Shown here: positions 2,107-55,791 of the stretch, piece after piece
How positions within the stretch are numbered: the stretch's first letter is position 1
How the letters are laid out: every line of letters starts with the position of its first letter
Origin: an uncultured Planctomycetia bacterium
GTDB lineage: Bacteria; Omnitrophota; Gorgyraeia; 2-02-FULL-51-18
DNA length: 64,000 bases
NCBI GenBank assembly: GCA_964642015.1
Contig: CAZXLF010000001.1
Location: 43,946 to 107,945, forward strand
Direction: 5' to 3'
The notes under the pieces: model-generated
Databases searched by the model: none
The model's input: the letters and a program-made list of their open reading frames with translations, nothing else
What the model was told of the DNA's origin: nothing
Translations under genes and position numbers: made by a program

Positions 2107-2107
2107 T

Positions 2108-3088: not shown

Positions 3089-3092
3089 TCTT

Positions 3093-3153
3093 CAGAAAAC
3101 AGACGTCAGAGAACAGATATTGCTTTAATCTGTACGCTGTCTTCTGTCTTCTG
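3093..3153. repeat. Imperfect hairpin of tandem heptamers, (CAGNNNN)3CAG - 13-nt loop - (CTGNNNN)3CTG, in the nuoCD-nuoH intergenic region
   Basis: The arm cagaaaacagacgtcagagaacag (3093-3116) matches the reverse complement of ctgtacgctgtcttctgtcttctg (3130-3153) at 18 of 24 positions. Confidence 0.5.
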
Positions 3154-3172
3154 AACACTTTCTTTAAATTAA

Positions 3173-4810: not shown

Positions 4811-4817
4811 GGTTTGA

Positions 4818-5504
4818 TCAGACTTTCGCTTCTTGAGGAGCGGGAGTCGGCGGTGTGGGGGGTGCCGGTGGTTTTCTGAATTCTGCGCGCGAAATGGCAT
4901 TCTTGTATTCTGCGGGACGATTATCTTGTGAGTCTTTTACAGAAGCCGGTGACATGACACCTTGAGTTTTTCCTGAGAGAATTTGTTTTTGGAGTTCAAG
5001 GACCCCGGCGATCAATGCCTCGGGCCTTGGCGGACAGCCGGGAACATACACATTTACCGGAATGATCTTGTCGATACCTTCAAGAATGCCGTATTGGCCG
5101 GGATATTTGAAAGGGCCGCCGGCAGTCGCGCAGCCTCCAAGAGCAATGACATATTTAGGCGAAGGCATTTGATCATATAAAGTCTTGATACATGGGACCA
5201 TTTTTCTTGAAATAGTTCCGGCCACGATCATCAGATCTGCCTGTCGCGGCGACGGACGAAATACGCCGAACCCAAAACGGTCCATATCAAAACGTGCCGC
5301 GCCTCCGGCCATCAGTTCAATCGCACAGCAGGCCAAGCCGAATGTTAGCGGCCATAAAGAATTGGCTCTTGCTAAATTTAATACGTCTTCAACACGAAAA
5401 AGATTCACTAAACCTGGTGCGGGAGATTGAGTGTTTAGATAATTGGGGTCTTTGTTGATCTCAAGATTGGGATTTATTTCCATGCAAATAATCCTTTTTT
5501 CCAT
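4818..5504 (-). CDS. nuoB: NADH-quinone oxidoreductase subunit B (N2 [4Fe-4S]) with Pro-rich C-terminal extension
   Basis: [10 protein letters not shown]...[10 protein letters not shown]...PGCPPRP motifs. The tail is [17 protein letters not shown]. Confidence 0.85.
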
Positions 5505-6239: not shown

Positions 6240-6323
6240 ATGGCAAGAAAACACAAACAAATCATAAGATCCCTCTCTTTGCTGTTGGCGGTTTCTTTTT
6301 TTGCGTCGGAACTTGCTTATGCA
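6240..6323 (+). other. Sec-type signal peptide of the giant protein (MARKHKQIIRSLSLLLAVSFFASELAYA|AP)
   Basis: Basic n-region, hydrophobic h-region and an A-Y-A signal-peptidase I site. Confidence 0.6.
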
Positions 6324-15300: not shown

Positions 15301-18300
15301 TCCAGGAAATGCAGGGCCTTATCAAAGCCGGCTCATCTGTGGTTCAAGCTATTCAGAGCGTGGCCGATAAAGAGAGGATCACGATCAATACTGAAAATCT
15401 GAAGTCTGTGCCTGTCGAGCGTTTCGGAGCGTTGCTTCCGCACGCCGGCAGAGTCTATGCAAGGTATTTCGATTATATGATCGTTGATAAAAATCGCCAG
15501 ATTGTTGCGGCTTTTCGCAGAAAAAATTTGGAGAAAGGCGCCTCATTCAGAGATTTAGAAGTATTTCCCTCTTCTTTTAAAGATGAGAATCCGCTGCTTT
15601 TCGGAAGTTTTTTCAGCTATGACGAAAAATTTCCTGCTTCGATAGGGCGGACCCCGACGGATAAACGGGGTTATGAAATCGCCCAGAACAGCAATAATGA
15701 ATATCTTAAAACCTCTGAAGGAGTGCCTCTTTATTGGTTCAATGAGGATAAAGAAACGGGAGAGTTATCTGTATTAGACCGCGGCCGATACGCGCTAGTG
15801 TTCTTATCAGGAGTACGGCATCCGCTTATTCCGGATAAAAAAGGACCCATTAGCTATGATAACGGCACTCAGGTGACACATTTTAAAGTTTTGCCTGATT
15901 TATTTATCATCTCGGGATCACAAAGACTTCTTTGGACCAACCATTCAACTCTTGAAGGCCGAACAGTCGAGAGATATGAGAAGGCTTTGAGGGAGGGGGC
16001 GTGGTTTGCTCCTATAAAGTCCCGTAAGATGGCAGGGTGGAACGTACGTCCGCAGAATCAAGCTTTATACCCGTATTTTGAATCCCAAGAGAGCGACAAA
16101 GATAAGATCAAAGAAGAGACCGCTGAATTTGCGCGGAGAGAAGCCGAATTAAGACAGGCAATAGATAATGAGTCAAAAAAGCCTAATCCAGATTCTGAAA
16201 CATTGAAACTTCTGCAAAATGAGCTGAAAAGGCTAGGCACGCAGCATTTTATGATAGATGCAGATGGTTATATGCATGCAAGAACTCTGCCGTGGAAGCA
16301 TCTGCCGGGGGAGATGGATCGTATTGGGAATGAGCTCAGGGAAGTCGAGGGACAGAAAAAGGAAGCAGACGCTAACGAGGCAAAGATTAATGAACAGATT
16401 CAGGAGGCTTTGCAACAAATAGAAAAAATAGAAAAGGGCGCACTTCCTAATCCTTCACAAGTTGCTCCGGCCGGAGCGCGCCTTGCGGAAACACCAGGCT
16501 TCCTTTCTGAAAAATTGTTGGTCGAAGTAAAGAAAATAAATTCGCTCCGAGATCTCGATAATATCAATCAGTGGTTATCTTATGAAATCGCACAAAATCT
16601 GATCACCCCTGAACAGGTGGTAAATGCGTTGGCAAGTATTATCGATGATCATGGCAATGATGAACTCCGAGGGCCTTTTAAAGATATTGCTGATGCGGTT
16701 CAGAAATTGGTCAATGATCTGGAATCTGAGATGCCCGGATCTTTTAAAGATCAGTTGCACCGCATCTTGTTCAGCGATAAGAATTCGGTGAAAGAGATCA
16801 TGACTGTTATCAATCCGGATGGAATGCACATGAGGCCTTCTTATGGCGTAGCCCGATTATCATCAAAAATTAAAGATGAATTGAGTCTCGATGTTTATAT
16901 TCAAAATCTGAACAGGCATCAAAACGAGATAACGCATGCAAGCGAATCACTGTCAATGCAGGCTTTGGGAATTGAGCAGGGAGCGCAGATAAGGATCATC
17001 GTAACAAAGAGCGCTGATAAGCAATTATTGGCGAACGTTATTCAGATCATAAAAGATTTCCTTTTGGATGTCGCTGCACAACAAAATCCAGAGAGCCAAT
17101 TGGAGCCCTATCTAAATAGGATAAAAAATCTTGGCCAAACATCCAATAACGGCGCACGGCTTGCAGAGGCGGAGAACCAGGGAGCGATCTCCAAGGTAGT
17201 TCAATCTTTCTGGCGATCATATCGACGGGCTACTTATAAATTTTTACAAGCGCCGTTGCGCGTAGATGATCTGATCATTGCCGTCAACATCATGGATCTT
17301 GGCGCAGAGATCGAAAATGGCAGGGTGGTCACCAAAGACGCATTGAAAAAATTAAGGGAACTGATCCCTTCACTGAAGAAAATGGGCGCCGGTAAGGTTT
17401 ATATTTACGGTGGACTTTATCAGATGAGCGGTATTTCAAAAGGACTGCACTCAGACCCGGGTTTAAAACCCAGAACCGAGAATGGAGCCACTGTGGTCGC
17501 CGGCTATGACACCAAAAAAGAGACCGTAGACGGTATTGAATTCACCGATCGTTTTGGCAATCCTTTCTCAATTATGGGCATGGAAAATTTTAATCCTGAA
17601 CTTTCCAGCGGAAATGCCGAGCAGGATTACGCGAAAACCGTAGAGGCTCTGAAAAAAGAAGGCATTGAAGTTGTCGCGGATCTGGTTCCTTGGCTTTCGC
17701 CCAGCGCGATCAACGAGACGAATTACAAAGCAACATTTTATAGGGAGCTTAGCGGTGGATTGAATGACGAATTTCGAAGTGTGTCCGAAGAAAATAAAGT
17801 GAAATGGCTTGACGAAAAGGTCTTATCCAACAATCCTGGCTATGCCGCTGTTCGTATCAAAGAAAGAAATAATCAAGGCGCGCTTCAAGAAAGGGTCATT
17901 TTGGTCAAGCGTCTCGGGTTTTTTGGAATAGACAGCGGTGACCAAGTCATATTAAATCCTTTTCATCCGTGGACGCAGCAATATTATACGGATGCGGTCA
18001 ATAAGCAATTAAGTTTGGGAGTCAAAAATCTGCGCATTGATCTCGGCCATTTGGTCTTGAAGCGCCACATTCTCGGCTATTTTGATGAAATGCGAACAAA
18101 ATTATCCTCGGAAGGAAAAAGCATGGAAGATTGGCTCAGAGAAGCCGGTACTGATATCCAGCCTGGAGAAAGTTTTGACAGCTGGTTTCACAGATCTCCC
18201 GAAGTGTGGCGCGAAGTGATGGACAGGATCAGCGCCGATAAAACCCATGGCTATGATTATAAAGACATCAACCTCATCACTGAATCATATGATTCAAGTC

Positions 18301-21300
18301 CGAATGGAGACCAAAACGAGCTTTTTTTGCAGGGGGTGAAGAGCGGATATCAGATCAATTTCTTTAACGCTTTGTACGGGGTTCTTCGGAATGGCTGGTC
18401 GGCCAGGACTTTGAGAGATGCGGTCCAATTTGTGGTCAATATAAAACCTAGAGGCCTTATTTTCCCGACTAACTTTGATCAAACGCGCTTAGCAAGAATG
18501 GGACGAACCAGTGCCGGTGCGCTCCCGCTTAGCCTTGTGCTGGCGCATCTGGGAGTGCCTACGATGATCGATCTGGCGGATATCATGGGACTTCAGGGCC
18601 ACATGATCCCTATCCCCGGAGGAAATCACGACCCGAACGATGCGCATGCTCATCCCTATGTTACTTCAGATGATCTTAAGATGCGCAGAGATTTTGATTC
18701 ATTCAAGAGGGCGTTCGAAGAGAACAGTTTCATAACACTCTTCGACGAATTTCGAGGTAATGTCAGGACTGCGGAAGAAAAATATATCCAGATCCTCAAT
18801 AACAGCAATCTGGACCGTTACTTCACTTTGGCGTGGAAAGACGAGAGAAATGATTGGACTATTTTTATCTATGATACCAGGCCTTCGGAAAACAAGGGCG
18901 CTGAAAAGATCGAGTTGCCGTTTTCTGGAGATGAAACAGGATTCGCGGCCGCTGATTACGAAGCCTATGACTCTAAGACCGGAAAACAACTTGAAATATC
19001 TCGTTGGGAGCCCAGCAGATCCGATTCTGCGCCAATTGTACAAATAAATTTTGGGACCGAAGATCAGGGTTCCCAGTATCGGTTTATTCAATTGGCAAGA
19101 ACGCGCTATGTCCGTGAAGAAAGAAGACCGGTTGTTGAGCCATTGGATCAGGCCAGAGCGATGCTGACCCATTATTTGCCCGGTCAAAGATTGACGGAGC
19201 TTTCTAGGATTGTTGAAGAAGACCGTTTTGATCCGTTCCGAAATCAGGCTTTGCTTTTTGCGCTGCTGGATGAATATTTCGGTGTCAGAGCAAGGGCAGC
19301 GAACGTGATTGCCGGACGCAATTTCGGGCGCAGCGTGGCTGTCCCAGTGCGGGAGCTTTTATCTCATCTCGAAGATCCGCTTCAGCCGATCCAATTTTTC
19401 AATCAACAGCCGAAAATGATCAGGGACGTTGTTTTTGATCCGAAGCGAGGCGCAAGGAATTTGCGCTACGCGCTTTTATTTTCATTGGGAAAAATGTTGG
19501 CGGAACATCCTTCGAGAAACGAACAGATGTACATTGACCACTTGAGGGCTGAGCTTCGAAGGCAATTACAAAGAGAGACTCAAACATGGGATCAAAATAA
19601 GGATACTGAACTTCAACAGGTCGCAGCGGACCGCGATATGGCGCTAGGCCAAAATGAAAAAATGAGCCTGCTTGAAGTCTTGAGAACGGTCGTGTTGCGC
19701 AGCCGTAATTTTTCGGATGCAGAGAAAGATAAATTTCAATGGGTACGCGAGTCAGTGAATCAAATTTACCCCGAAACACAGGGAGATGAGGTATCCGACA
19801 TCATTTATAAACCTTACAGCGCCGCTGAAAACGGCGCACGGTTGGCTAAAGAAAAACCGACAGGAAGTATGTGGCATGATACCGATCTTCATGCGATTCA
19901 GGATTTTGTTAAAAAGAACAAAGGGCCTAAGCTTATTTTGATCTCAGGGATCGGTCCCGGTGTGGGAAAATCCACGCTTTTGAGACAAATGAGAGATGGA
20001 AATATCGATATCGGTCTGACCCGCCGCGATGAAAATTATTTTGCGGAAGGCAAGCAATTTGCCGACCTTTACAATGATTTTAGAACGGGCGAGCAAACTT
20101 CCGGAATATCGGATTATTCAAATCTACCGCTCCGTTTGCTGAGGTCAGACTATGATAAGACTCTTTTATCCAAGCCCTTGGCTTTTACCCATGAGATCGC
20201 GGTCGGCAGCTTTTTGACGTTTGTGTATGATCACGGGAAGGAACTTTTCTCCCCAAGGAACGACCGTCTCGTCGCGATAGAAGACTTTGGGACACATGGC
20301 TGGACCTCTGATCAATTGCAATGGCAGGTGTTGGCAAAAGAAAAGAATAAGTTGCCGGAGAAATTAGCCAACGCCTTCTTGAACATTTCGATCCTAAAAA
20401 TATATATCGATAATGACCCGCTCGATGCTGCCAAGCGCCGCATGGCATTCGAATCCACAACGATGCGTCAGGAAAGAGACGTCTACATTTCCCGGTCATC
20501 CGGCGCCAGATTGGCAAATGGAAATAATGTTCGATTTACTTTGATCGGCGGTGATCTGCCCGGAAGCGGAAACGCGATCCTGTTGAGATTGTCCGGAAAC
20601 AAAGCGGTGCTTTTGGATGCCGGCATTAAGTCCGATAAAAGACGAGTGTTAGAACAAGCGCTTGGGGCTGATAAATTAGCTGCCGTGATCATCACGCATG
20701 CACATTTGGATCATTCTGCCGGGGCTCCGTGGCTCCATCATTTTTATCCGGATGTTCCTATAGTCGTTTCTGAAACAACAGCCCGCATTTTGCCGCCGCT
20801 CTGGGACGATAATCTGCAATTTCAGGCCGGTGAATCGTGGAAAAGCACCAGGCACCATAATGCCGAGACAATGAGAGCGCTTGCGAAATTGCCGGTCGGT
20901 CAATGGTTCAAAGTAGACGACGATCTAAAAATCTATTTGAGCCATGCTGAACATGTGCCGGGCGCGGTCTCATTATTTTTAGCGACACGGAACGGTAACG
21001 TTCTTTATACCGGTGATACGTCCACCTCGGGGCAATTGACATTAGTGCCCAACGAGATTCTGCCGCCTCAAAAAGAAGCCGACACGCTGATCGTTGAAAC
21101 GACGAATGGCGGTCGAAATTTCGGACCGATCGAGGACAGAAGAGAAGAACTTATTCGTGAAGTCAAAGAAACTTTTGAAAAAGGCGGTAAGGTCCTGATA
21201 CCCGCTTTTGCGGTCGGTCGTTCAACGGAAGTCGCGATGATCCTGCAGAAAGCGATGGAAGAAGGAAAGCTTCCTCGCGCTACGATTTATTTGGATGGTA

Positions 21301-24300
21301 TGGCCCGAGGCATTGCGAAACAATTGCAGAAGGATCCCGATTTTCCCGATTTGCAATCCTGGTTTGAGCCGGGAAGTCTTGTTCAGGAAATGGTCGAAGA
21401 CGGTCAGAGATCGGCGGTAATGCGGTCCGGAGATCCGGCGATTTTGATCGCGGGCTCGGGAATGCTGAACGGCGGCTCAGCGCTCCGTTATTTGGCAAAT
21501 CTTATTGAAGACCAAAAAAATAAAATTATTCTTGTTGGTTATCAAGCCGCGGATTCTTTTGGAAAGATCATTCAAAGCGCTTCCTCGGGAGATAGAGTGA
21601 CCTTCCCTCAGAAAATAAGGCCGGTTGTCAAGATACCCGGAAGAAATCCTAACGATCTTGATTTTAGTTTGAACGCTGAAGTCAGGACGGTTTCGTTCAG
21701 TGCGCATGCGGGACACGATGGTTTAGTCGAGTTGATCTTGGGCGTAAATGCCAAAAATGTTTTTGGGGTGCACGGAAGCGATCAGGCAAAACAAGCTTTG
21801 AAGCAGGATCCTCGATTGAGTGGTGTCAATTTCGTTGAAGATTGGCAACTCGGACAGGAAAAAGATTTTCAAGCACCAGCGTCAAGAGCGGAAGAGTTTT
21901 CCGCTATTCAAGCGGAGCCGCTGCCTAAACCCGGCAAGGTTATACATCCTCTCGAAGACTTGGTCGCTGAAAACGTGCAAGAGTGGTTGAATCATTTCCT
22001 CGATATTGGAGCTTTGAGCTCGGATCAGATTGAGCGGATCGGAAGGGTCATCGATTTTCTCGAAGGTTATTTTAGAGTTGCCACGAGCGTCCAAAAGATC
22101 GAGGGGCTTTGGATAAAATTTTATGAAGCGTTCGAGTCAAAAAATCCAGCGACCGATCTTTTGCAATGGCTGGACGATCTCAAGTCGACAAAGAAAGTGA
22201 AGGTTCAAACCGTTAAGGCCGAGAAAAAAACCCGGACACCCGAAGAGATTATCGATGGGGAAGTGGCCGGATGGTCTGACAGTGTCAGAACTTTTTTGGA
22301 TATTGGATTACCTGAGGGATCAGCCCCTCAAAATATCAATGCTTTAAAAGGAGAGGTTCACCGGATCTCGGAATTTTTGCAAGGCACTGATTATGCGGAA
22401 CGCGCTCAAGATCTTTTTGATCGAGTAAGTCATGTCACAGAAATGAGCGAAGCGGCCCCATTTTTAAATTCGTCCCGGCAATGGGCTTCGGCTTTTATCG
22501 AGCAGATTTTGACCGCTTACTGGAGCCAGAATGTCGCTCGCGGTCAGTTGCGCAGAAGTTTGCAGCAAAATGGTACGGTTAGCCGTTGGCATAGCCAGGT
22601 TACGGAGAACAACACGGGATGGCAGTGGCTTAAAGAATCTTATCTTTGGTCGCAACGCTTTGAATCGGCTGGGACTGGAGATCCGCAAACTATTTATCCG
22701 GCTGTCAGAGGGTATTTCGAAAGGGCTATTACGACTGCTGAGCTTGAAGTCTTAGCGAATCAATTGGAAGCCGAAGTCAACGCGCAAGGAATAAATGCTG
22801 CCTGGGCTAGAATTTTGGCATCCGGACCAATTCAAGGCGCAAGACTTGCGATGAATGAACAAGAAGCTACAAGATTTTACGGAAACATCGCCGAATTATT
22901 TTTCCAATCTGCCTATCAATTGTTAAAGACATCCGATGAGTTGGGATTACCTCAAGTTCCCGGTTTTAATCAGTATAGTTTTCTTCTCAGTTATGTCGAC
23001 AGAGCGTTAGAAGGATTTTTAAAGGAAAGACAGATCACAAAGATCCAAAGAGGTATCGATAATATTTTGAGACGGCTCGATGAGCTTAAAGCAAGATCCT
23101 CGGCTTACGAAACCAATGACAATGTCCGCCAGTTCGAAACAGCCTTGACTTTACTGCAGCAAGATCTTTCGGAGATTGAAACGTCTGTGGCCAGTGACCG
23201 TTATACGATATTGGCTCATCTTTCGCCCTATCCTATGGACCTCAGCACAACAGCGCTTAGTATCCAGCAGATTCTGGAAAAGTACTTCGCCATTTTACAG
23301 AATTGGGCAGATCAAATGCAGATGTTGTATGAAGAGCGCAATATTTTTTACAAGTCTGAGGAGTTGTTGAGCGAGATCGCGGAAGGGGCTGATACTACAG
23401 AAAGTCCGTTCTCGGGATGGGCCATTTCGCTGAGGGACAATATTGTTCCGCAACTAGTTGATCTCGATAGATCGATTGGATATGAGGGGGATCGTGAGGT
23501 TCACGAAGCGTTCGCGGCGGTTGGTGAATCGTTGTTGTCTTTGGCGACTTATTTACGCATCGCGGCTTTGGTTAAACAAGGCGGAGCTGAAAATGCCGGC
23601 GCGCGATTAGCAGTACCGCTGAGCAAGAGCGCTGTATTCGCAACACTGGAAGATAAATTTCCTTTGGCGGTGATCGCTGTGAGTGCCGATGCTGTGAGCA
23701 GAAGGAACCGATATCTCGATGCTGTACCGTTTGCTTCGTCAGGTCCTTTTGAATATTCCTTCCGTATGGGGCAAGTCAACGATGAGTTGTTTTTCCACGG
23801 AGTAAGAGAGGCAACAAAATTTGCGGTTAAAGAGATCGTTAAGAACTGGCTCCATGTTTCAGATCAGATCAGTATCAAGAGCCCGGCCCGTTTGCGGATG
23901 AGTCATGATGATAAGGAGCTGATATTAGAATTTTTTAATCAAGGCCGTGCGTTCGATTTTGGATCAGCGACAGGTTATGGGGTGAGCGGTGCGCCGGGCA
24001 TCAGACGTCTCGGCGGAGTTCATTTCGGTTTCGGCATGGGACTGTTTTGGACCAGGATCCTGTTTGAACAATTGGGTCTCGGACACATGGAAGTGCATTC
24101 CGGAAATAAATTATGGCTTATCGATAAAGGGCATTTTGAAACAAGATCCGCCAGCTTCATAGACGGTACGTACATCATGCTGAATATTCCTCTGAATGCG
24201 GGAACGGTTCAGAAAAAACGAGAAATGAAATGGGAGGATCTGGTCAGGGAAGGTTATATGATCTCGGTTTCGCCGCTTCAGCAAGTGTTCGAAGGGATTT

Positions 24301-27300
24301 ATAGAGTCGATGTAGATGTATACGATAAAGAGCATGAAAAGATCTCGATCGGCGTCAATTTCTTTGTTTATGAAAAAGAAAAAATGATCGATGTCACTTC
24401 ATTTGCTCCCGGATTTCCTGAGCCTAGAAACGAAGAAGAGAAGGTCGGGCGCGGGAGAGCTTTGCTCGCGCATATTTTAAGTCCAGAAAAATATGGGAAT
24501 TATCTTGTATTTTCGGATGCTCTACCGAATTTCCGAAGATCGTTCTTGAAGATCCAAGCCTGGAACCCTAAAGCTAGTCTTGGGAAAGGCAAGCCTGAAT
24601 TCTTGGAACAAAAAGGAAGGATTTTAGAGCAGCTAACACTAAAGCGCGCCGATGCCAGATTGATCCAAGCTTTTCAAACGGCAAAAGTTATCGGAGTCAT
24701 ACCCGGAGTAATATCCGGCGCAAGATTGGCCGCCGGGGAGGTGAAAGAAGAAAAAACGGCCTCCGGTGACGGACTTTCATCGAAAACAGTGCGTGGAAAG
24801 ATCGCTTTCTTTTATCCAAAAAGCGCTGAAGAGATACTTTATGCGATCCCGCCTGAGAAGTTAGAGCAATCGCTGGATGAATTTAAAGATCTAATCAGGG
24901 AATTGGAAAGAGCGTTGGGAAATGAAAATACCGATCAAATCGATTATTTGAAGGCGAAATCGGAAAAAATCATCGCTTCTATAGAAGCGCAGATCGCCCA
25001 GGCAAGATCTTCGGCGGTGATCAATCCTGTAGCGCTTTTGATCAATGGAATAAAAGAAGATATTGAGCGGTCGGGCAATGGCGCTGGTGTTCTGTCGCGG
25101 AGCAAATTGGAAAATGTGCTTGACCTGACACGCGCTCAATCGATGGTTTTGTCCAGATTATTTTATTACAAGGACTTCAGCAGCCCCTCTTCATCTGAGT
25201 TGGCGGACGCGATGCGTGCAGCCAATCAAGAACTTGATAATGCCGATCAAATAATAGAGAAGTTCATTGATCAATATGACCAGATGGCTTTAGCTGCACA
25301 AAAAAGAGAAGCGGAGCTGACGAGAATCAAACAAAGTCTCGCCAATTCGATTAAAACCTTAAATCAAGATTTGCAGTCATTACAAGAAGCCAAGACGGCC
25401 CAATTTATGACCCAGAAAGAAATCGCGGACCGCCGGAAAGAAATCACCGAAAGGATCAAAGCCACCGAGGAACAGCTGAAGAAAATTCAAAGTGTTCTTC
25501 AACAGCAAATGAGCATTATCCTGAATTCTTTTAAAATGATGGCCGAGCAAATAAGAACAGAATATTTAGCCGCTGGTCAAACCAGAGAACGCACAAGAAA
25601 TCGTATGGTGGAGAGTAATAGAAATTTTGCAAGCATACTTTACGAGGATAAGTTAGTCAAACAGATGTTCCCGTTAAGAAGGCGCCTCATGGCTGGAGCG
25701 GCACAAGGAAAAACAAGCGACACCTATTTTCTTACAGGCACGAATGATGCTATTGCTCTTTTAAAAGAGATCATCAATGCTTTGGCGTCATCAGCGGAGA
25801 AAGTTTCAGAGACGCACAAGCTGGCCGCAGGAGATCATGAAGAAGATCTGATATTGGTCGTGAAGGATCCGTTAGGTGTAAGCACTTTGAGTCAAATATG
25901 GTCTAAGTACGGCCCGCGCATTAAGGGGGTCATTGCTACTAATGCCACGCGTAATACTCATTGGGTCATTGTTTCTCAGGGTTTTGCCGAACCTCCTGCT
26001 GTTTTGATCGTAAGCGATAAAGAAGCCGCGCAGCGGCTTACGCCTGGATTATCGGGTGATGACGCTATCCTTTTAAGTCAAGCATCCGGCGTCAGCACCG
26101 CTTATGTCAATCCGAGTCCCCAAAGTGTTCGCCACATGGAAATAGAAAATATCCGGCAATCTTTGGAACGCGAATTAGCTCTAAAGAAGAAGAATGATTC
26201 GACAGAATTCCGCATGCAAGCGAACGTTACGCCCGAAAATATCGAAGGATTGGATGAAAACGGAGCGGATGGCGTTGGTTTGGTGCGCACGGAGGATTGG
26301 GGCGCGTCCGTCGAGGCTTTGCTTGAGAAATATCTTGAAGCAACGCCTGAAGAGCGTCTGCTTTTGAGTCATGAGCTGAGGATCGAGCTCGCGAATAGTT
26401 ATGCCAAATTGATCAACCCCTCGCTTGCCGGAAAGGAGATCACATTCCGTACTTTTGATGTCCAGGAAGACAAGAACGAAAAATTCCTTACCAAATTAAA
26501 AAAGGCTGCCCAGAGAATGCCCGAGTTATTGTCAGGTGTCCCAAATATAGCAGGCTTTGATTTTTATAGGACAATGATAGGAAAGCGGATGCTGATCGAA
26601 CAGATCGCCGCGCTTTATACCGCCCAGAGTCGACTTGAAGAGAAAGAAAGGCCGCTTCTTAAGATCATGTTCCCACAAGTGAGGAACAGGGAAGATTTAA
26701 ATTACATCTATCACGAGATTTTACCTCAAGTCAGACTGACTTTAAGACGCTCTGGATTGTCGGCGTCGAGTGTTAACAAACTCACCAGATCCGTTATTTT
26801 TGGCGTCATGATCGAAACCAATGAGTCTCTGCAGAATATCAGTCAAATTTTGGAAAGCCCTCTGACGCGATTTCTAAGTGTCGGAACGAACGATTTGACC
26901 GCAGCGGTGGTTGGTGATTCCGTAGCGCGACTGGCTGCCAAGAGTACCGGCTCTTATGTGCCGGTAACGATCAATCGGGACTTACCGCAATTTGAAGATG
27001 TCTTTTCGAAATTGAATCCTGATGTTTTGCGGGCTCTTAAGAGTTTAGCGGAGGCCGTAGCGATCCACAACCAGACGAGCGGCCGGTCGGTTGAGCTGGG
27101 TTTCTGCGGAGAAATTGCTGGAGCGGACAAATTTTTGATCTTCCTGCTTTATTTGCAAAGGCAGTATGGGATACGGGTCTATTCCAGCATGTCGGCGGGC
27201 CGTATTCCGATGGCCAAATTCATGCTGCGGCAAGCATCGCGTATGAAACAAACCGTATATGCCAAGATATTCGATAGGCTGAGCGCAAGGACGGATCATT

Positions 27301-30300
27301 TCGGGGAGAAATTAGCAAGGGAATTGGTGGCAAATTCCAAGACTTATAAAAAAGAGGTGCTCAATAAAACGAGTGCAAGAGCGGCTGAGATCGAGGAAGC
27401 GGCGAGGCAGCAGGAAATCGCCGCAAGGAATATCGAAAAGATAGAGCTTTCTCAATCTGCCGATCTGTTTGGGGCACAGCCTTTGACAGACGGTGTCAGA
27501 GTATTCAGCAGTCAGATCAGATATACGCCCTTTTTAAACCGGGAACAACGTTTGGGCAATGCGGTGTATTTAGGTTCCTCAAGCTTTGCGCGCGCAGTGC
27601 TGGATGAGATCGTATTGAATGCGCTTGACGCGATGAGACATGCTTCTGAAAATCCTGACCCTTCTGCGGATGTTTCGATAGAGCTTTTCAATGAAGGGTC
27701 GATTCTGAAATTGACCGTGGTACAGGAAGGTGTGACGGATACGGATTGGGAAAAGCTCAAGTCAGTAGCGCAAAATTTTAAGGAACGAGGTACCGGTTAT
27801 CTTATTAGCTTAAGGGGTCTGCAGGGCAGTTCGTTTACTGGTATTTCCCGGGGTAACGGGTTTTATAACCTTGCGATGCTGATGCAGAGAACTCCCGCAT
27901 CCCTGACCTATTCGAAACAAGCCGGTTCGAATACTGTAAAGACAGAACTTATTTTTGATCTTGCGACTTACAATAAGTCCGGCGCACGCCTAGCTTCCTA
28001 TATGCCGTTTCCGCCGGAATTTGAAGGTAAAGAAATAATAAAAATTGGCGGCGAAATAACGCTCCGGGGTCCTGATGGCAAAAGGTCAATTTATGCGCAA
28101 AAGGATACCGCGTCGTTTAATTTTGATCAAAATGGGTTCACGCTCGCTGATCTGCCGTTCAGGATCGTTGCAGAAAAACAAATTAAACCGAAGAGCGAAG
28201 AACAAAAAGCCGGGCCTCAGGTCGCTAATGTCGAATACATTTTAGAGGCCTACGGCAGAGATAAGCAGTGGCACCGTCTGTTCGATGTTGATCTTCAAAA
28301 AGACAATCCGATCGCTATTTATCGCGGGGCAAGGCCTGAGAATCTGACCCCTCAGGGTTTCGAGCCGAATCATTTTGTTGACGGCGACGGGAATATTTAT
28401 ATTGATCTCGAAAAAGGGCCAACGGTGACCGGCGATCGAACATCGATCGCTTTTATTGCGAATGGTTTTAAACCAACTACTGTTTTACTGCCTATAGATT
28501 TGAGTTCAAATTTAATATCCAGACAGCGTATTTTAAGCAAAGGAGAGTATGTTCGCGGAAGGGACACGATCCGTCCAGGTGCCGAAAAAAGGTCATATGG
28601 TACTTACGCTTCCGATAAGGGTGAACGATTTGTCGTGTTTCCCGATTATAACCAACCGGCACACGCTGTTTTAACGGTCTTAGGCCCTGGCATTGCGCGT
28701 TTGGCAGATCTTGGAAGTATGAACGGAGCCTATATTTATCCGTTCGCGAAAAATAAACAAGCTGTTGTCGAGGCATCAGAGATCATTGAGCTGGTCTCGC
28801 GGGAGGGAGAGTCGCAATTTATTCTGCGTTCCCAATTAAATGAGAATTTAGATGAACTGTATTCCAATAATTCGATCCCGATCATCAGAAACGACAATCC
28901 TCAACAAAAATTCAAGGTCCAAGAGGCTCAGATCTACACCGCTTATGCTTCGATTGGAGAGCAGATCTTTGAACGGAAATTCTTTAAGGTAGAAGGTGGT
29001 TCTTTATTTGAATGGTCTCCGTCGGGTTGGCAGGCAAATCCTGGCAATAGACTGTTAGGCGGCGACGCTCCGCTTGAAGGCCAGAGATTCTTGAAAGAAA
29101 AAGACAGAAGCTTGGCGCCTTCCTATTTGATCCGATTATCCGACACAGAGGCCAATGTTATTATTATAAAAAGTTTTTCTGAAAGAGTTGTGATCAGGCC
29201 GGCGAATGATGATGAGAAGCGAAATCTCTCAGGCGCGCGATTGGCTTTGGGCAATATCGATCTGCATCTTCCTCAGAACGTGGAAGCTTCTACGGCAGCG
29301 CAACTTGAAGGCCTTCTTCTGCAATTAAAAGGTCTGCTCACAGCTTTTTATCGCAACACTTCGAAGAGCAGAGATTACAATTACCAGAAATTACTTGAAG
29401 TTTCGGCGAAGATCGAGGATATCGAAGAGTCTCTCGGGCTTAAATATGTCGATGAACGTTTTTGGGTTTCCAAGACATGGGAGACGACTACAGGTCCTCA
29501 GACCTATTTTAAGATTCATCCTTACCACAATGGTTTTCTGCCCGGCGTGCATTTTTTAGAACGCGAAAATGAGGCGATAGAGAGGATCAGGGAACGGGTG
29601 AGTGCGATCCGGAATACGCGTGGTAAAGATGAAATCGTCACACTAGCCATTGGCGGCCGGCCGGGAGTGGGTAAAACAACTTTCGCAGAAAGAATTCGGT
29701 CGAGCGGTCTTGAAGGATTATATGATGCGTCCGAGATCAAGGTTATCAATGTCGATAATTTCCTTGTGAACATCAATGCCGAACAGGTGGTGAATTTTTC
29801 TGATATTGAATATCAGATGAATTACCAGAAGGACCCCGAGATAAAACTAGTTGTTGTCGAAGGAACTCATTGGAGCCAGGTCTTTAATAAGTCGCGAGCA
29901 GTCGGTAATGCCAAAATTTTTGAGAGTAAACCGGACGTTTTTGTTTTCTTGGGTCTTGTCGATGAAGCGACCCGTTGGCACCGCATCTACGGACGCGAGA
30001 CAGATTTTGACCGTTACACGCGGCTTGAGCACTTCTTAAAAATGGCGATCCCGAGGAATATTTATGACCGTTACATCGGTATTGATGCGGAGTCTTTGAG
30101 CGCGGATGTCGTCTTGAATTATGAATCCAGGATCAGAGAAGAAAACGGCGCAAGACTGGCGGAACAGGATCTCAAGGATGCCATCGCGGAATTAAAAGCG
30201 ATCCAGGATATTTTGGGTACAACGCTTGAAGCGGTAGGTCATGGCGATATATTGCGAGCACTGTCTTTGTCGGACAGTGAGAAAGAATTTTTAGAGAGTC

Positions 30301-33300
30301 TATCAGAGATCATCTCGCGGGCAGAAAGCATTGCGAATGTGATGCGGGGACCGGAAGGTAAGCTTTTATATCCTCTATTTGAACCAATTTCCGGTTTCTT
30401 GATGAGTTTTTCCAACAGGATCGGCAGTTATCCGTTCCCTATCCAAGGCGTTTCCAAAGGAGCCGGCGGGATACTTTTTGTTTCCGACCGCCGGGAAGAG
30501 CTAGCAGATCTTTTTAGGCGCGCGTCCTATCATATGGATCTTTGGGTTTCCGGCCAGTCTCAGACAGCTGCATCGCTTCGGAATCCTTATGTCGCGGCGA
30601 AAAATGTCACGAGAACATTTGGTAGTGATGATGACATTGTCGGCCGTCGCATATCAAAAACGATCGGAGAGGTCCTTAAAACCAAACCGACAGCGGATGT
30701 GCTGATCATCGGTGCAGGAGCCGGCGAGATCGTGCGCACACTTGAGAATAAATACGGGAAGAAAGTGCACGTGACAGCGATCAATAAAGAAGCCGTGAAA
30801 ATATCGCCTGAAAAATATCTTCAAACAATACAAAGCCGGACAAGTCTTGCAAAGATCACGGAGTTTCTCGATCGTTTTAACCGTGATGTGATTATTCAGG
30901 ATGTTGATGGTAATCTGGCTATTGAAGGCAAGAGGGATGTGATCATTGTTTCATTTGAAACGCTGCGTTATATCAAAAATAAATTCCATCTGATCGCCCA
31001 AGCCAAAGAACTTTTGCGCAAAGACGGCGGACTATTTGTTATTGGAGGGCTCGACCTTATCACTTTGGAGTTATGGAAAGGTAAACGACGAACGAACCCA
31101 GATTGGTCTATAGAATCGTTTTTGAGTTTGATGAATGCAGAACATCGCGAGCCTCAATACGAGTATTTGCCTTATAAACACAGTTTAATTTTGACCAATC
31201 GTTATCCTGAGTCAACGTTCATGGACCTGCCTTTGATCGATTCAAAAGTGCGGCCTGATTTTGCTACTGATGACGGCGGGCAACAACAGCCTTTACCTCC
31301 CACCTATCAGGTCGTGTACAAATTCGATTCTTCAGGCGCCAGATTAGCGGCTGAGAAGGATCCCATGGATGAAGCGATGTCGGCCGTTCAGACTGCATTG
31401 CAAAATGTGATCAACGGCAACCGCGTTCTCTTTGAATTGGCTACGGGCCAAGCGAATGAATTGAAATTATTAACGGGTATGCAATTAGGAATGCTGGCAC
31501 GTCTCCATAAGAGTGGTCCTATTGTTCGTGATCTTCAACTGTTAAAAAATAACCCTCAAGATGCGGGCATTCGCGCGCGGGTTGTTTCCACGATTCAGGA
31601 AGTAAAAGCATCGGCGCAAAAATTGATTCAGGAATTCGAAGCGGTGCCCGAAAAAGCTCCCACGTTTGAATTTAATATTTTTAAAACCGAATATGGATTG
31701 GCGATAGCCAAGCTGGATGAAGCGTTGATCACTTTAGGCATCTCTCAAGGCGCGCGTCTTGCTGTATCTGAAGAGCCTGAAAATCAGGTCATTCCATTCC
31801 GCACAAAGAGGGTCGGCCCCAAAGGAGAATCGCCGGAGGAACGTTTGAGGTTTTATCAGGCGGAAGACGATGCGATCAACGCATTTTGGAAACAGCTTGA
31901 TCCAAAGAAAAATAAGGAAACCGACTATGCTCGCATTATTGAATCTCTGAATGCTGAATTCCGGAAAGCTCATCCGGAAGACGGAGCTTCACAGGTGATC
32001 AAGATAGGAAGTATTAAGGAGTTGACCCGATTTACCGAAGAGTTTCTCGGATATTATGAGCCTCGTTTGTTGCGAGGTTACGGAAAGCTTTATCATGCGA
32101 TCTGGTATTTGATCGAAAATGTTTGGCAGCATGCCGATGATTATGGGGCATTGATCATCAGGGCTCATGAAACGCGCGATGGACGAATTTCTTTTGTTGT
32201 GACCTTGCTTGATCGGGGCCAAGGTTTTGTGCGATGGGACGGCAGGCATGCGCCGATCCATCAAGCGGTACGTCAATTTACAAAATTGGGCAAGGGCGGG
32301 AACGCGGGTAATGGCCTGGCGAACACGGTACAAGATGCAAATTATATATCGATCCTGCAGATGAATAAACAGAAAGGCCTGACCTATTGGGAAAGAAATC
32401 CGGGTATAGTTAAAAATTGGACTGAATACCTGATCGAAAAGAAATTGCCTGATTCACAATCACCGGTAGAAACGGGAACAAAAGTCGTATTCATCATGAA
32501 TGATCTCCCGATCACTCCTCCTCAGCTCTATTTGAAAGCCGGCGCAAGACTTGCAAGCCGTGATCTTGGGTCTTTACGGAACCAGGTAAACTTTTTGGCG
32601 GGTGAAGTAAGAGCGCTTTTAAGAGAATTGAGACAGAATCAGGGAGCCTTAGATGAGACGATCGTGAACTATGCGAGGACTAAAGAACCCGGCATTGCGT
32701 GGACTCCGGCCTTAATTAAATACCGGACGGAGATAGAACAGCTTTTGAGCAGGTCTCGCGAGCAGCTTTTGCGTGCGAACCGTTTATTTGGATATGGACG
32801 CGATTATCAAGCGGTCTCTCAACTATTAAAGGCCTATGATGTCATCCAAGTGGAAATTGGTTTGTTTGTGAGGAAAATGTCGGAAGTCAAACAATCGGAA
32901 TACCGGCACTTGTCAGGCCGTTTCAATGAGGATTTTTCTTTTGACGAATTGCTGAATGACGTTGCGCAGTACCAGTATGAACATGGAAATCCTTATATTG
33001 CATATCGTTTGCACCTTCACGCCGCTTTAACGTGGTTCGATCAGATGGACCATACGTTGAGAGGAGTTTATTTCAAGAGACGTGTTGCTGATGTCAACCG
33101 TGTGCGTTTGGTAAAAGTCTCTCAAAAACTCATCGACAGCATCTTCAAGGCTTGGAAGCACTTGAAAGAAATCAAAGACGATGATCAAGATCAAAAGCGT
33201 TTCTTGAATATCCTTTTGCCTCAGCTGATAAGGCAATCTGATAGAATCCGTGAAAGTGTTGTAAGTAGCCAGAATGTATTTAGAGATGTCTTAAGTGATT

Positions 33301-36300
33301 TTACCCATGAGGATGGTTATCTTTATAAAGGTGCTCGTCAACTTTTAGCGATACAAACATTGCACGAAGAAGCCGGTGGCGGTGCAGCCCAGGGAGCAAG
33401 ACTTTCTTGGTTTAAAGAAGCATGGAACAAAATAAAGAATGTGTTAGTAAATCCGTTTACTGGCCCTGTAAATCTGGAGGATAATGCGGACTTTATTTTG
33501 CAACAACCAGTTCCGGGGCAAGCGGCGAATCGTCTGCCCAATACCGTAGAATTTACCCCACAGGATTTGACACCGCTTCGGATCTGGCAATGGTTGGAAA
33601 ACAACGGTACGATACGAGCGCTGGGCGAGGTGAATCTAGGTCTCGGCAGTCAGATCCAGCTCCAGATCCATCACTATGCGGCCAGAGGCGATCGTGTTTT
33701 TTCACCGGCCGATTTTAAGGATTATTTACGCGATAATATTGAGACTGAACCTTCGCTGATCGAGTTGAATCAAAATTATCGGGAAACCTTAGCTCGGTTG
33801 CAAGAAGCTTCAGAGCCCTACTTATTGAGCTTATATGTGCCTTTTGCCCGCGCGATTCAGCTAAACCCGGATATTTATAACTCTAAGCTCTTAGGTCGCT
33901 TTGGAAGCAGTTGGAACAACGCCATCCAAAATTTCCTTAAACAAGAAAACATCGCACCTGATCTGAACGTGGATCAATTGTATCCCATATTGTGGAGGAT
34001 CACACATGACAGCAAGCAAGGTGAGACCGCCAGGAAGCGTATGGCCGAAATGATTATCGATTCATTAGGTGTTGATCGGAGAGCGGTCCTTTATTCTCAG
34101 GTACAAGGGAAGTCATTTGTGCAACTTATAAACGAGGTCATGCCGCAGAATACATTTGAGGAGCTGGATAACTCTCTTAACCAGACCGGAGCCAGACTTG
34201 CCGGCCGGCCGGGTGAGGAACCTGAGAAAAAACTAACGAAACTTGATGCATTTCTGATCCGGATATCGCCGTTCCTGATCGCATCCATGATCGATTATGT
34301 CGTCTATGAAAAGATCCAAGCGGCTCAGAATGCTTCGCTCGTTTATTATTTGATCCATGCCGGCATAGCTGCAGCGTCCTCGATCGGCGCAGTATTTGCT
34401 TGGCGGTATTTAGGCCGCGTTTTAAAGGATAAAGCATCATTATTCCAAAATGAGCAAATCAAGGCAGCGGAAAAAGAAGCCAAATTCCGGGAACTGCGGG
34501 GCAAGCTCGATGAATTTGAGAAAGTTTTAGGAGGTCTGATCGACTCGATGCCGGAAGATGGCGAATTGACGTCGCTGCCGTTCGAACTGCGAGACCTGAG
34601 AACGCAGATCAGGATATTGAGGCCATACGTTACTTCGAACAGGCAACAGGAAGCTCTCAAAGAGATTTTTAATCTATGGACAAAAAATATTCCTAATCTT
34701 CAGGATCAGATCGTCATGATCCGCCAGCAGTCTTTTAGAAACGATCTGGCACGTTTTGCGGGAGCGATCGGGGATGTTCGGATCCCGGAACTTAAATCGC
34801 TTCTTAATCAATGGAGTTTATTGGCAGAATGGGAGATAAGTTATCGTTTGCATGCCAGCGTAGCATCTTTCCATCTGAACGCCGCGATCCAGCAGCTCTA
34901 CAACAGAGCGTTCCCAGGAGTTGCGACCGAGTACAAAATGGATTTGCGCGAGATCAGAAACGAAGTCAACCATTCACTAGGACCCGCGGAGCAAGATTTT
35001 AACTGGAGAGCCAGATACGACCTTTCTTATATGTACTGGGTCGGCCAATTGAAAAAACTGATTCCGGATATCCGTGATGATCAGATACTTTCTGACAGAC
35101 TTCGGCAGTCGTTGACCGGAGAAAATAGCGGCGTGCTTTACCGCGTACTCGAACAGTTCGAGCAATTGGAGATCCGATATGAAAACGAGCCTTACCCTCC
35201 TGCCGGCGCGCGGCTTGCGGCGGATAGAGCAGAAAAGGATCGCCAAGTTCGATCAAAGTATTTGGAGCTTATCCGCCAGGCTGTTAATCCCAATCAAGAA
35301 AATAAAGTAGGTTTGTATATCAACGCCGGGTCCAATGTTTATGATCCATTATTAGCTACGAATGCGACCGTTCTTATTATGACGGATCAGCTGGCTTTCC
35401 ATCCTGCCAATAGAGAAAGAACCTTGACGCCGGAACAAACCGGAAAAGTTTATGATTTGGCGGAATTTCCTGTCATGGCCGAAGACGCTCTGAAAGCCTT
35501 TACAGATAGCGGTGGCACTTTATATGAACTTTTCCTTTTATCACTTCATAAACTCGGCGTACCTACGGAATCGATTCAACCCGAACGAATTGAACCGGAA
35601 GTAACGGATCGGGATGATTGGAAGATCACATTCACATGGCGCCATCCATCGGAGAGCGTTGCCCGAGAACGTACTATTTATTTTTTGGGTTCAAGGAATT
35701 TGACAAATTTGAGAGCTGAGAACTTGCCCGAGCCGGTTCTTTTGTTGATCAGGAACAATGGCGGTTTGGATCTATTCATAGAAAAGGCACCGAATTATTA
35801 CGGCGAGTATCTGCGTCATGAACATTTTGCTTTCTTCCCTCGAGCCCTGATTCAGGCTGTCAATGATCTGAAAGCAGCTCTTTTAAAACGCGGAGCCTAT
35901 CTGCTCGGGGATAATGAACAATCTTCCGCATTTCCTTCATCGAATACTGCGCTCTTGGGAGCTAACTCCGATTTTGCCTGGATCAAGAAAACATGGGCGT
36001 TGTGGTTGGCGGAATGGAAATTTACGTGGCGCAGAGGTTATTTTGAGTCGCAAGTACAATGGGGGAATGGCAGTCTTGAGCTGGTCCAAAGGCAGAGAGG
36101 AACACCGACCATCTTGACTCAGGGTGGCGCGACCGGAGCGCGTCTGGCTGAATCTACTGTGTCTGGCGTCAAGCCCGCGCTGTTTTCACATCCGATCCTA
36201 AGTTCGATCGTTTTATTGAAACGTCTAGGCCTATCGGGGAACTTTTTTACCCATGCTGAAAATCGCCTGCTTGCGCTGAATCAATCTGAGAGAGCGCTTT

Positions 36301-48471: not shown

Positions 48472-48849
48472 ATGGAACAGCCCGGCGAATATCTAGGTTT
48501 GCTTGTCACTTTCCTCATCGCGGTGAGCATCGCGGCGCTCATTATTTTTCTAAACGGGCTATTAGGTCCAAAAAACAAATCTTCTAAAAGTAAATCCGAG
48601 CCTTTTGAATGCGGTGTCGCACCCGTAGATTCGGGACGCAACCAGCCTGCCGGATTTTCGGTAAAATTCTATCTGATCGCAATGTTCTTTATCCTTTTTG
48701 ATGTCGAGATCGTCTGGCTTTTTCCATGGGCGGTCATCCTAAGAGAATTGAAATGGATTGGCATCATTGAAATGTTCTCATTTCTCGCGGTACTCGCCCT
48801 TGGATTTATTTACGCGTGGAAGAAGGGAGCGCTAGAATGGGAAAAATAA
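48472..48849 (+). CDS. nuoA: NADH-quinone oxidoreductase subunit A (second paralog)
   Basis: NuoA motif FYLIAMFFILFDVEIVWLFPWA. Confidence 0.85.
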   Translation: MEQPGEYLGLLVTFLIAVSIAALIIFLNGLLGPKNKSSKSKSEPFECGVAPVDSGRNQPAGFSVKFYLIAMFFILFDVEIVWLFPWAVILRELKWIGIIEMFSFLAVLALGFIYAWKKGALEWEK

Positions 48850-52259: not shown

Positions 52260-52274
52260 TAAAACAAAATCTTT

Positions 52275-54147: not shown

Positions 54148-54162
54148 AGCGCTCATTAGAAG

Positions 54163-55788: not shown

Positions 55789-55791
55789 ATT

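Follow-up and report, generated by a model that had tools for sequence, protein, structure and literature searches.

Enzyme I (EI) and HPr of the phosphoenolpyruvate (PEP)-dependent phosphotransferase system (PTS) are classical proteins of the bacterial cytoplasm, where sugar uptake and carbon regulation begin with them. They also occur joined on one chain in multiphosphoryl transfer proteins of the FruB, PtsA/FryA and DhaM types, as in an Acinetobacter protein of 950 amino acids (aa; P0232) that carries PF05524, PF00381, PF00391, PF02896 and PF00359. Among the long proteins of Omnitrophota, pyruvate phosphate dikinase (PPDK) domains have been reported in the 'Archaeovorins' (West-Roberts et al., 10.1101/2023.11.21.568195), and a 'multi-enzyme' class has been described (10.64898/2026.06.07.730766). 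Enzyme I, HPr and a recurrent delimiter peptide go unmentioned in both preprints, and we found no paper in the searchable literature that links Omnitrophota with HPr or the PTS. Here we analyse a stretch of 64,000 nucleotides (nt), referred to as the window, from an uncultured bacterium of the Omnitrophota (contig CAZXLF010000001.1, positions 43,946 to 107,945). One unbroken reading frame of ~42 kb (6240..48383; window features lie on the + strand unless marked otherwise) encodes a giant protein of 14,047 aa. A preliminary description of the sequence had placed an EI-type domain and two HPr-type domains in this single, signal-peptide-bearing protein, and profile searches and alignments bear that out. 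It had also regarded the arrangement as unusual; the EI and HPr modules are there, but the giant is not one protein's curiosity, being a member of a large Omnitrophota family. By its sequence relationships, the EI-like module belongs to an undescribed, Omnitrophota-wide clade of EI-like proteins that are coupled to a conserved head domain and carry signal-like N-termini.

The complete EI-like module spans 24738..27389 (aa 6167-7050), where the unit had first been set at 25900-27200, and its relatives align to the giant from ~aa 6130-6160 through ~aa 7050. The motifs on which the module was initially recognised are present: THWVIVSQG (aa 6573, nt 25956), GVGLVRTE (aa 6678, nt 26271), MIETN (aa 6857, nt 26808), SVGTNDLT (aa 6880, nt 26877) and CGEIAG (aa 6956, nt 27105). 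Comparison with Pfam profiles, which had been proposed as a check, gave a divided result. PEP-utilizers_C (PF02896) matches aa 6649-6999 with 100.6 bits (E 1.1e-28, cut-off 22.8), and the HPr profile PF00381 also scores above its cut-off (see below). The mobile-domain profile PF00391 was not reported in the giant even at E up to 10 and was detected in the relative P0111, while PF05524 and PF01326 have no match in the giant's EI-like module, the helical region giving coiled-coil-type noise only. Despite the PF00391 miss, the phosphohistidine loop is supported by alignments to full-length EI and to TIGR01417 and by the structure model. TIGR01417 (Enzyme I) is the top NCBIfam model for the module, with 78.6 bits over model positions 147-549 (curated cut-off 341.7), and a PPDK model ranks second with 48.1 bits, both scores lying far under the curated cut-offs. 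In a phmmer comparison with PDB sequences, aa 6538-7000 aligned to residues 157-541 of Escherichia coli Enzyme I, with H6574 on His189.

We built an AlphaFold2 model of aa 6161-7060 from an 11-sequence family alignment (A1), which reached a mean predicted local distance difference test score (pLDDT) of 82 and a predicted template modelling score of 0.65, with model residues 1-6 below a pLDDT of 50. The predicted order is N-terminal beta strands, a helical subdomain, a His-bearing alpha/beta subdomain, a linker helix, a TIM barrel and C-terminal helices. The two N-terminal strands of the alpha/beta subdomain, GDGLSSKTVRGKIAFF (24753..24818, aa 6172-6193), are ones we take to resemble the EI N-terminus GIxASPGIAxGKA. 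They are followed by an all-helical subdomain of ~320 aa, assigned with DSSP on the model (24825..25787, aa 6196-6516), which would occupy the place of the HPr-binding helical subdomain of EI (~110 aa) at about three times its size. Alignments and model together delimit the phosphohistidine (swivel) alpha/beta subdomain (25815..26108, aa 6526-6623), with H6574 at nt 25959-25961, and the PEP-binding TIM barrel (26211..27239, aa 6658-7000), which holds R6683, R6737, D6740, K6745, E6859, N6884, D6885, R6913 and C6956 (nt 27105-27107), with D6774 at the position of Arg358. A Foldseek search of the PDB ranked full-length E. coli EI (2KX9) first (E 6e-17), with PPDK structures after it. The length of ~880 aa had raised PPDK or PEP synthase as a candidate identity, which we rejected: the N-terminal region is helical, PF01326 does not match, and the module is not a PPDK or PEP synthase because it has no ATP-grasp domain. 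As modelled, the module has the domain order of Enzyme I with an enlarged helical subdomain. It is not a PtsI orthologue, considering its score of 78.6 against 341.7 bits, the roughly threefold helical subdomain and the family-wide replacement of Arg358.

The active site has been retained to a considerable extent. In the phmmer alignment and in the invariant columns of A1, His189 of E. coli EI corresponds to H6574, R296 to R6683, R332 to R6737, K340 to K6745, E431 to E6859, N454/D455 to N6884/D6885, R465 to R6913 and C502 to C6956. Besides the phosphohistidine, eight of the nine active-site residues that we checked are thus kept in the giant, the exception being Arg358, whose position is taken by D6774 within the family motif G-F-D-F-Y-R-T. 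Across 98 long relatives placed on the family profile, the phosphohistidine is found in 89/90, R296 in 91/92, R332 in 97/97, K340 in 94/95, E431 in 97/98, N454 in 91/98, D455 in 97/98, R465 in 90/94 and C502 in 97/98, so that active-site positions are 92-100% conserved although these relatives share only ~21-46% identity. The Arg358 column of the family reads D41/N13/E11/K7/R6, and canonical-size EIs from the same search have Arg in 17/19. A His-Trp signature marks the phosphohistidine in 59 of 90 family members, where canonical EI has His-Thr, His-Ala or His-Ser. C6956, the equivalent of the catalytic Cys, is one of only 7 Cys among 14,047 residues, and its retention in an otherwise Cys-depleted giant argues for selection on catalysis. 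A check of catalytic residues, likewise proposed beforehand, was positive for both partners: His15 and Arg17 of HPr are kept, as are the phosphohistidine of EI and its set of Cys, Arg, Glu, Asn and Asp. The EI-like module is probably catalytically competent. In the nearest relative, P0082 (7,836 aa, JGI; module identity 46%), a Tyr replaces the phosphohistidine (TSATLIAYWVIISQG) and the other active-site residues are intact.

An exhaustive HMMER search of 1.84 billion representative sequences returned 225 matches, 66 of them at E ≤ 1e-10 and 21 at E ≤ 1e-30. The top matches (30-46% identity) all lie within long proteins, of up to 7,836 aa, and canonical EIs (575-600 aa) surface only at ~E 1e-6. 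At least 100 EI-like relatives reside within long Omnitrophota proteins; every relative with a source name is assigned to Candidatus Omnitrophota, and homologous long proteins come from many samples. Automatic names on Omnitrophota proteins of 1,051-7,015 aa hide their multi-domain make-up, such as 'HPr family phosphocarrier protein' for HOW58973.1 (7,015 aa) and MBU0683241.1 (1,051 aa) and 'putative PEP-binding protein' for MFC1807987.1; MBU1785157.1 is a further case. Other searches returned little. Word-indexed searches with the module and with the family alignment retrieved canonical EI and PPDK only, at 21-29% identity, and missed the giant itself; a scan of GTDB representative genomes, which do not include the giant's genome or its relatives, yielded only a Selenomonadales EI; a first metagenome pattern scan gave no matches, and a second with a tighter alignment was dominated by canonical EIs, its patterns being the universal GVGLxRTE and FRTxD motifs.

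Many of the relatives share with the giant a signal-peptide-like N-terminus and a head of ~540 aa, which in the giant lies at 6357..7859 (~aa 40-540) and is 40-57% identical to partial Omnitrophota proteins. P0084, complete at 2,135 aa, has the EI-like module directly after the head. In three independent contigs a head gene of 532-537 aa (L005 1705-3303; L086 6280-7893; L087 224-1822) precedes an adjacent EI-like gene of 948-973 aa, and glmS, a TP_methylase gene and an lpxA-like gene follow the split pair. All three free-standing EI-like proteins have hydrophobic signal-like N-termini, and so does the product of the one head gene examined (L005). Invariant or nearly invariant residues of the head are D77, H79, E107, G108, E144, E160, R470-D471 and G495-G496-H498-T499. 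Its AlphaFold2 model (pLDDT 77.5) has an alpha/beta core with a large helical insertion; the fold has no significant match in the PDB, and Pfam gives sub-threshold hints only, to DUF5694, ChaN and erythromycin esterase (Tiki-like). These relatives point to a conserved core consisting of the head and the EI-like enzyme, between which the giants hold thousands of residues of other modules. Response-regulator receivers (REC) also accompany the family: P0105 has four REC domains, one of them at aa 4120-4232, downstream of its HPr modules, and two contigs have REC genes (L005 942-1337; L086 3815-4180 and 4668-6158) ahead of the head/EI-like operon, which hints at a link between a His relay and Asp receivers.

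HPr-like module 1 of the giant lies at 16785..17060 (aa 3516-3607) and module 2 at 43743..44030 (aa 12502-12597). PF00381 (PTS-HPr) matches them with 35.7 bits (aa 3519-3605) and 36.6 bits (aa 12504-12595), above the cut-off of 23 (E ~1e-8 to 1e-9) and over profile positions 2/3-80 of 81, while both fall under the TIGR01003 cut-off of 47.9, with 30.5 and 30.7 bits. Each has the active-site loop G-[MI]-H-x-R-P, in agreement with the motifs quoted earlier, GMHMRPS (aa 3528, nt 16821) and GIHFRPL (aa 12514, nt 43779). The equivalents of His15 and Arg17 are H3530 (nt 16827-16829) and R3532 in module 1 and H12516 (nt 43785-43787) and R12518 in module 2; position 46 is Glu in the former and Ser in the latter, and loop insertions are present. 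Both modules are internal to the giant. A self-BLAST of the giant shows no internal repeats, so neither the two HPr-like modules nor its two FHA modules are recent duplicates. With a locally iterated HPr profile we detected a total of 49 HPr-like modules, distributed over 40 of the 151 EI-bearing proteins, a lower bound given that many of the latter are truncated. His15 is retained in 45 of the 49, Gly13 in 44, Pro18 in 40, Arg17 in 31 and Ser46 in 14. The modules stand nearly always downstream of the EI-like module, at a spacing of 14-165 aa (23 proteins) or ~890-1,160 aa (14 proteins), and are often found in tandem as two or three copies. In three relatives, Pfam bears out the pairing of EI and HPr: P0105 has PEP-utilizers_C, two PTS-HPr and four Response_reg; P0126 has GDPD, HD, PEP-utilizers_C and PTS-HPr; and P0111 has PEP-utilizers, PEP-utilizers_C and PTS-HPr. 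Pfam finds no Enzyme II (EII) domain in any of these three.

On balance, we favour a model in which the EI-type enzyme is active, phosphorylates itself on H6574 and hands the phosphoryl group on to HPr-type modules, with a regulatory or effector-like output rather than transport. The analysis shows homology, domain order, residue conservation, family distribution, HPr co-occurrence and delimiter placement; catalysis, EI-to-HPr transfer, processing and cellular location are inferences. In this scenario, the TIM barrel would use E6859 and D6885 to bind Mg2+ together with a phosphoenol donor, PEP or a near analogue of it, and would phosphorylate H6574 on the swivel subdomain, with C6956 as the proton donor. 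The swivel would then bring the phosphoryl group to the enlarged helical subdomain, from which it could be passed to the HPr-like histidines (H3530, H12516) in cis, between copies of the protein, or after release of the modules. The output would be regulatory or effector-like (PTS-Ntr-like) and not sugar transport, because no EII domain is found: with matches accepted at E up to 0.01, Pfam detects neither EIIA nor EIIB nor EIIC in the giant, within the part of the genome that the window covers. The PTS-Ntr-like relay put forward in the preliminary description is hence a reasonable reading, but the transfer from EI to HPr is only inferred, with one HPr module 2,523 aa ahead of the EI-like module and the other 5,456 aa behind it.

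Several points weigh against this model. Arg358, which contacts the PEP carboxylate in EI structures, is replaced, so the donor may not be PEP; a literature search on the role of Arg358 found nothing relevant. The nearest relative, P0082, lacks the phosphohistidine, and some members may have lost phosphotransfer. The curated cut-offs of TIGR01417 and TIGR01003 are missed, PF00391 and PF05524 go undetected in the giant, and the structure model of the EI-like module was built on only 11 aligned sequences. The positions of the giant's HPr modules (-2,523 aa and +5,456 aa) make it a spacing outlier in its family; no HPr gene lies within 8 kb of the split head/EI operons, and an HPr module is found in only about a quarter of family members, again a lower bound owing to truncation. 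Finally, export, to which the signal peptide points, would take the protein to where PEP is not expected to be available.

The modules of the giant are set apart by a short peptide, G-[AST]-R-L-[AS] (hereafter GARLA), which occurs 35 times, mostly as S-G-A-R-L-A, with a median spacing of 308 aa, and so divides the protein into ~36 segments; residue shuffles give an expectation of 0.25 copies and a maximum of 2. GARLA hardly occurs in the other five frames or elsewhere in the window. Its synonymous codon positions all vary, which places the constraint on the peptide and not on the DNA, and we rejected a DNA-level repeat as its origin. The copies lie at aa 584, 641, 801, 1061, 1457, 2017, 2656, 2779, 3412, 3638, 4532, 4755, 5533, 5787, 6160, 7248, 7665, 7970, 8366, 8504, 8768, 9052, 9317, 9656, 9966, 10284, 10888, 11428, 11995, 12219, 12497, 12624, 13023, 13244 and 13462. 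Many of them stand at the edges of recognisable modules. The copy at aa 6160-6164 (24717..24731) precedes the EI-like module, whose first strand follows after ~10 aa, and that at aa 7248-7252 (27981..27995) follows the module and closes an EI segment of aa 6165-7247. HPr-like module 2 is directly preceded by GARLA at aa 12497-12501 (43728..43742) and directly followed by GARLS at aa 12624-12628 (44109..44123), a bracketed unit of 122 aa, and the copies at aa 3412 and 3638 surround HPr-like module 1, in a delimited segment of aa 3417-3637. Further copies precede a GNAT acetyltransferase module identified with Pfam (aa 1061; module at 9525..9857, aa 1096-1206) and a metallo-beta-lactamase (MBL)/beta-CASP/RMMBL ribonuclease-type module (aa 4755; 20529..21809, ~aa 4764-5190), follow FHA module 1 (aa 2017; 12096..12275, aa 1953-2012) and FHA module 2 (aa 10888; 38709..38882, aa 10824-10881), and surround a Fic (AMPylase-type) module (aa 13244 and 13462; 46224..46481, aa 13329-13414).

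In the structure models of both the EI-like module and the head, the GARLA-bearing stretches have a pLDDT below 50. The nearest relative, P0082, has 18 copies of G-A-R-[LM]-A, and in many other family members R-S-E-[MVLA]-R supplies the commonest tetrapeptides. Of 21 internal EI-module starts, 14 have a GARLA or RSE-type motif in the interval from -25 to +60 aa, compared with 8% of random positions. This distribution suggests that GARLA serves as an inter-module delimiter and is a candidate processing site. Cleavage there would release free EI-like proteins of ~1,080 aa and HPr-like proteins of ~120-220 aa. A literature search on GARLA returned nothing relevant. West-Roberts et al. did not split their giant proteins into units for want of information on cleavage points (10.1101/2023.11.21.568195).

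Where such a protein would act bears on how the relay is to be read. The N-terminus, MARKHKQIIRSLSLLLAVSFFASELAYA/AP (6240..6323, aa 1-28), read from the sequence, has the n/h/c layout of a Sec signal peptide, with a basic n-region, a hydrophobic core of 12 aa and A-Y-A/A-P at the end, and similar N-termini occur in many family members. Sec targeting, as first proposed for the giant, is plausible. The sole strong transmembrane (TM)-like segment besides the signal peptide is LVVAFAALAGVIALISFAP (14604..14660, aa 2789-2807; Kyte-Doolittle hydropathy 2.45), with GARLA at aa 2779 ahead of it, and this segment could return everything downstream, including the EI-like and HPr-like modules, to the cytoplasm. 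No strong hydrophobic segment lies between the signal peptide and the EI-like module in seven relatives (P0083, P0084, P0085, P0087, P0088, P0105 and P0115). Low Cys content is typical of exported proteins and of RTX-type toxins. The giant's 7 Cys amount to 0.05%, against 1.65% in neighbouring proteins, and ~414 TGY codons would be expected from base composition; Cys content in the relatives is 0.04-0.2% where strong TM-like peaks are absent and 0.4-0.8% where there are many. Together, the signal-like N-termini, the absence of a strong hydrophobic segment ahead of the EI-like module in several members and the low Cys favour an extracytoplasmic location for these proteins. Both preprints on Omnitrophota giants caution that localisation predictions are unreliable for such proteins (10.1101/2023.11.21.568195; 10.64898/2026.06.07.730766).

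These features lend themselves to the rival that survives best, though we consider it unlikely: that the giant or its released modules leave the cell and act in or on prey or host. The EI-like module would then drain or divert prey PEP or phosphorylate prey HPr, and the HPr-like modules would be decoys or adaptors, roles that the preliminary description had also considered, for prey PTS regulators, working beside the Fic, GNAT, FHA and beta-CASP nuclease modules, all of them domain types common in toxins and effectors. Signal-peptide-like N-termini on the giant, many relatives and the free-standing EI-like proteins, the unobstructed stretch before the EI-like module in the seven relatives, and the extreme Cys depletion of the giant and of relatives without strong TM-like peaks are in line with export, and Omnitrophota have been proposed to be predators or parasites with extracellular giant proteins (10.1101/2023.11.21.568195; 10.64898/2026.06.07.730766). 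On the other hand, the window contains no secretion-system, translocation-device or pilus genes, the flanks being two nuo operons; the TM-like segment could put the downstream part back in the cytoplasm; and the full catalytic site, kept family-wide, speaks against the EI-like module being purely a decoy. In an extended form that we hold to be doubtful, a Sec-exported polyprotein would be cut at G-A-R-L-A (R-S-E-x-R in sister lineages), freeing EI-like, HPr-like, Fic, GNAT, ribonuclease and FHA proteins. Inside prey, for example, the EI-like protein could consume PEP while the HPr-like proteins rewire or jam the carbon-regulatory PTS, or HPr-like proteins could act in an Hpt-like manner on the receivers found in relatives. 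If true, either version would be the first PTS-type phosphotransfer chain outside the cytoplasm of its producer and would give bacterial giant proteins their first defined processing code.

Next in order, and rather improbable, is that the module is an active enzyme of the PEP-utiliser superfamily that does not serve HPr, its acceptor being the head, a small molecule or a receiver domain, while the HPr modules serve in binding or regulation of another kind. It is the head, and not HPr, that is conserved as a partner of the EI-like module, fused or adjacent in every case examined, and the absence of HPr within 8 kb of the split operons fits the same picture. The replaced Arg358, the His-Trp signature and the tripled helical subdomain distinguish the module, receiver genes or domains stand beside some members, and Ser46 and Arg17 are only partly kept in the HPr modules. 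HPr is normally a rare domain. That 40 of 151 EI-bearing proteins contain it, typically 14-165 aa beyond the EI-like module, and that 45 of 49 modules keep the His would be hard to explain without a functional link; moreover, the helical subdomain is predicted exactly where EI binds HPr.

That the modules are inactive evolutionary relics, serving as structural filler in a giant scaffold, is very improbable. Scores under the NCBIfam curated cut-offs, the missing phosphohistidine of P0082, a few HPr-like modules without His, and the ~85% of the giant that lacks any Pfam or PDB-sequence match would agree with decay, but the strong conservation of catalytic residues among divergent relatives, the catalytic Cys retained in a protein otherwise purged of Cys and the conserved G-x-H-x-R-P loop of HPr speak against it. 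Chance or compositional motif matches, or a reading frame created by misassembly, are refuted by E-values of 1e-28 and ~1e-8 to 1e-9, a 42-kb open frame with even base composition along the whole gene, neighbouring genes that recur identically in independent assemblies, and homologous long proteins in many samples.

The MBL/beta-CASP/RMMBL module is complete, and its nearest relatives of known structure (E 1e-37 to 1e-31) are ribonucleases, namely those of the archaeal CPSF/FttA type and TTHA0252 of Thermus. A weak Methyltransf_12 match lies at ~aa 8155-8264 (30702-31031 region of the window; E 0.005, under the cut-off). The giant gene sits between two divergent, partly duplicated sets of complex I (nuo) genes: a minus-strand set at 1064-5504 (nuoJ, I, H, CD-fused and B) and a plus-strand set at 48816-57428 (nuoB, C, a 343-aa TPR protein, D, E, F, G, H and I), in which a TPR gene between nuoC and nuoD is unusual. 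In P0080 (JGI, 673 aa), the first 197 aa of a head homologue (61% identity) are joined to NuoCD (76% identity). The counterparts of the two halves in the window (6285-6866 and 3176-4528) are on opposite strands; we rejected a real head-NuoCD fusion, P0080 being probably a chimeric or misjoined contig or reading frame, which nonetheless shows that the adjacency of nuoCD and the giant gene exists in a relative.

A divergent, apparently active EI/HPr pair recurs throughout a phylum of ultra-small, probably predatory bacteria, coupled in every case examined to a head domain with a signal peptide, often set within proteins of thousands of residues and with no sugar permease seen, which suggests that PTS-type phosphotransfer has been recruited beyond cytoplasmic sugar signalling. 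PEP-dependent His phosphorylation offers a biochemical handle on the Omnitrophota giants, whose functions both preprints call open. The delimiter peptide supplies module boundaries and candidate cleavage points that earlier work lacked, and it becomes practical to excise and express single modules.

Compared with known systems, the EI-like module stands closest to PTS Enzyme I (PtsI; E. coli 2HWG and 2KX9), with which it shares, as modelled, the domain order and, by alignment, the equivalents of His189, R296, R332, K340, E431, N454, D455, R465 and C502. It differs in its ~18-27% identity, its profile score (78.6 vs 341.7 bits), its helical subdomain (~320 vs ~110 aa), Asp at Arg358 and the His-Trp signature, and whereas PtsI is a free cytoplasmic enzyme encoded next to ptsH, the EI-like proteins have signal-like N-termini and are coupled to the head. 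The HPr-like modules resemble HPr and NPr (PF00381, TIGR01003) in scoring above the Pfam cut-off over the whole 81-position model and in keeping G-[MI]-H-x-R-P with His15 and Arg17; unlike these ~85-aa proteins, they are internal modules that fall under the TIGR01003 cut-off and contain loop insertions, with Glu at position 46 of module 1 and no conservation of Ser46 in the family. PPDK and PEP synthase have a swivel phosphohistidine domain, a PEP/pyruvate TIM barrel and a similar length (~880 aa), but the giant's module is helical ahead of its His domain, lacks ATP-grasp and scores higher as EI (78.6 bits) than as PPDK (48.1 bits).

As to the relay, multiphosphoryl transfer proteins also hold EI and HPr on one polypeptide, so a single-chain phosphorelay has precedent. 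They are cytoplasmic, shorter than ~1,000 aa, equipped with EIIA and canonical in sequence, whereas the giant has no EII, modules thousands of residues apart and a signal peptide. PtsP/EI-Ntr with NPr offers a functional analogy in being an EI-HPr-type relay that works in regulation without a sugar permease; unlike it, the giant has no detected GAF or EIIA-Ntr domain, the window being the part of the genome covered.

Among giant proteins, the 'Archaeovorins' differ through their numerous TM regions and their divergent SecA_DEAD, HEAT and glycosyl-hydrolase content, which the giant does not match: Pfam finds no SecA_DEAD, HEAT or glycosidase domain in it. The 'multi-enzyme' class is more alike, as the giant is an Omnitrophota protein of >10,000 aa with a signal peptide and many Pfam families (at least nine, none dominant) without a dominant repeat, including GNAT and a weak methyltransferase; it departs from that class in lacking SecA_DEAD, in having few TM-like segments and in being flanked by nuo genes rather than secretion or pilus genes. 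By analogy only, the giant recalls MARTX-type toxins and viral or bacterial polyproteins, as a very large, possibly exported, Cys-poor protein in which unrelated enzyme modules are separated by a recurring short peptide, although it has neither RTX repeats nor the cysteine protease domain nor any further feature of MARTX, the NF012221 match (E 9.2) being noise. Taken together, the EI fold, its domain order and the catalytic residues other than Arg358 are kept, and what appears to be new is an Omnitrophota-specific, head-coupled clade of EI-like proteins with HPr-like modules, found here within a delimiter-punctuated giant.

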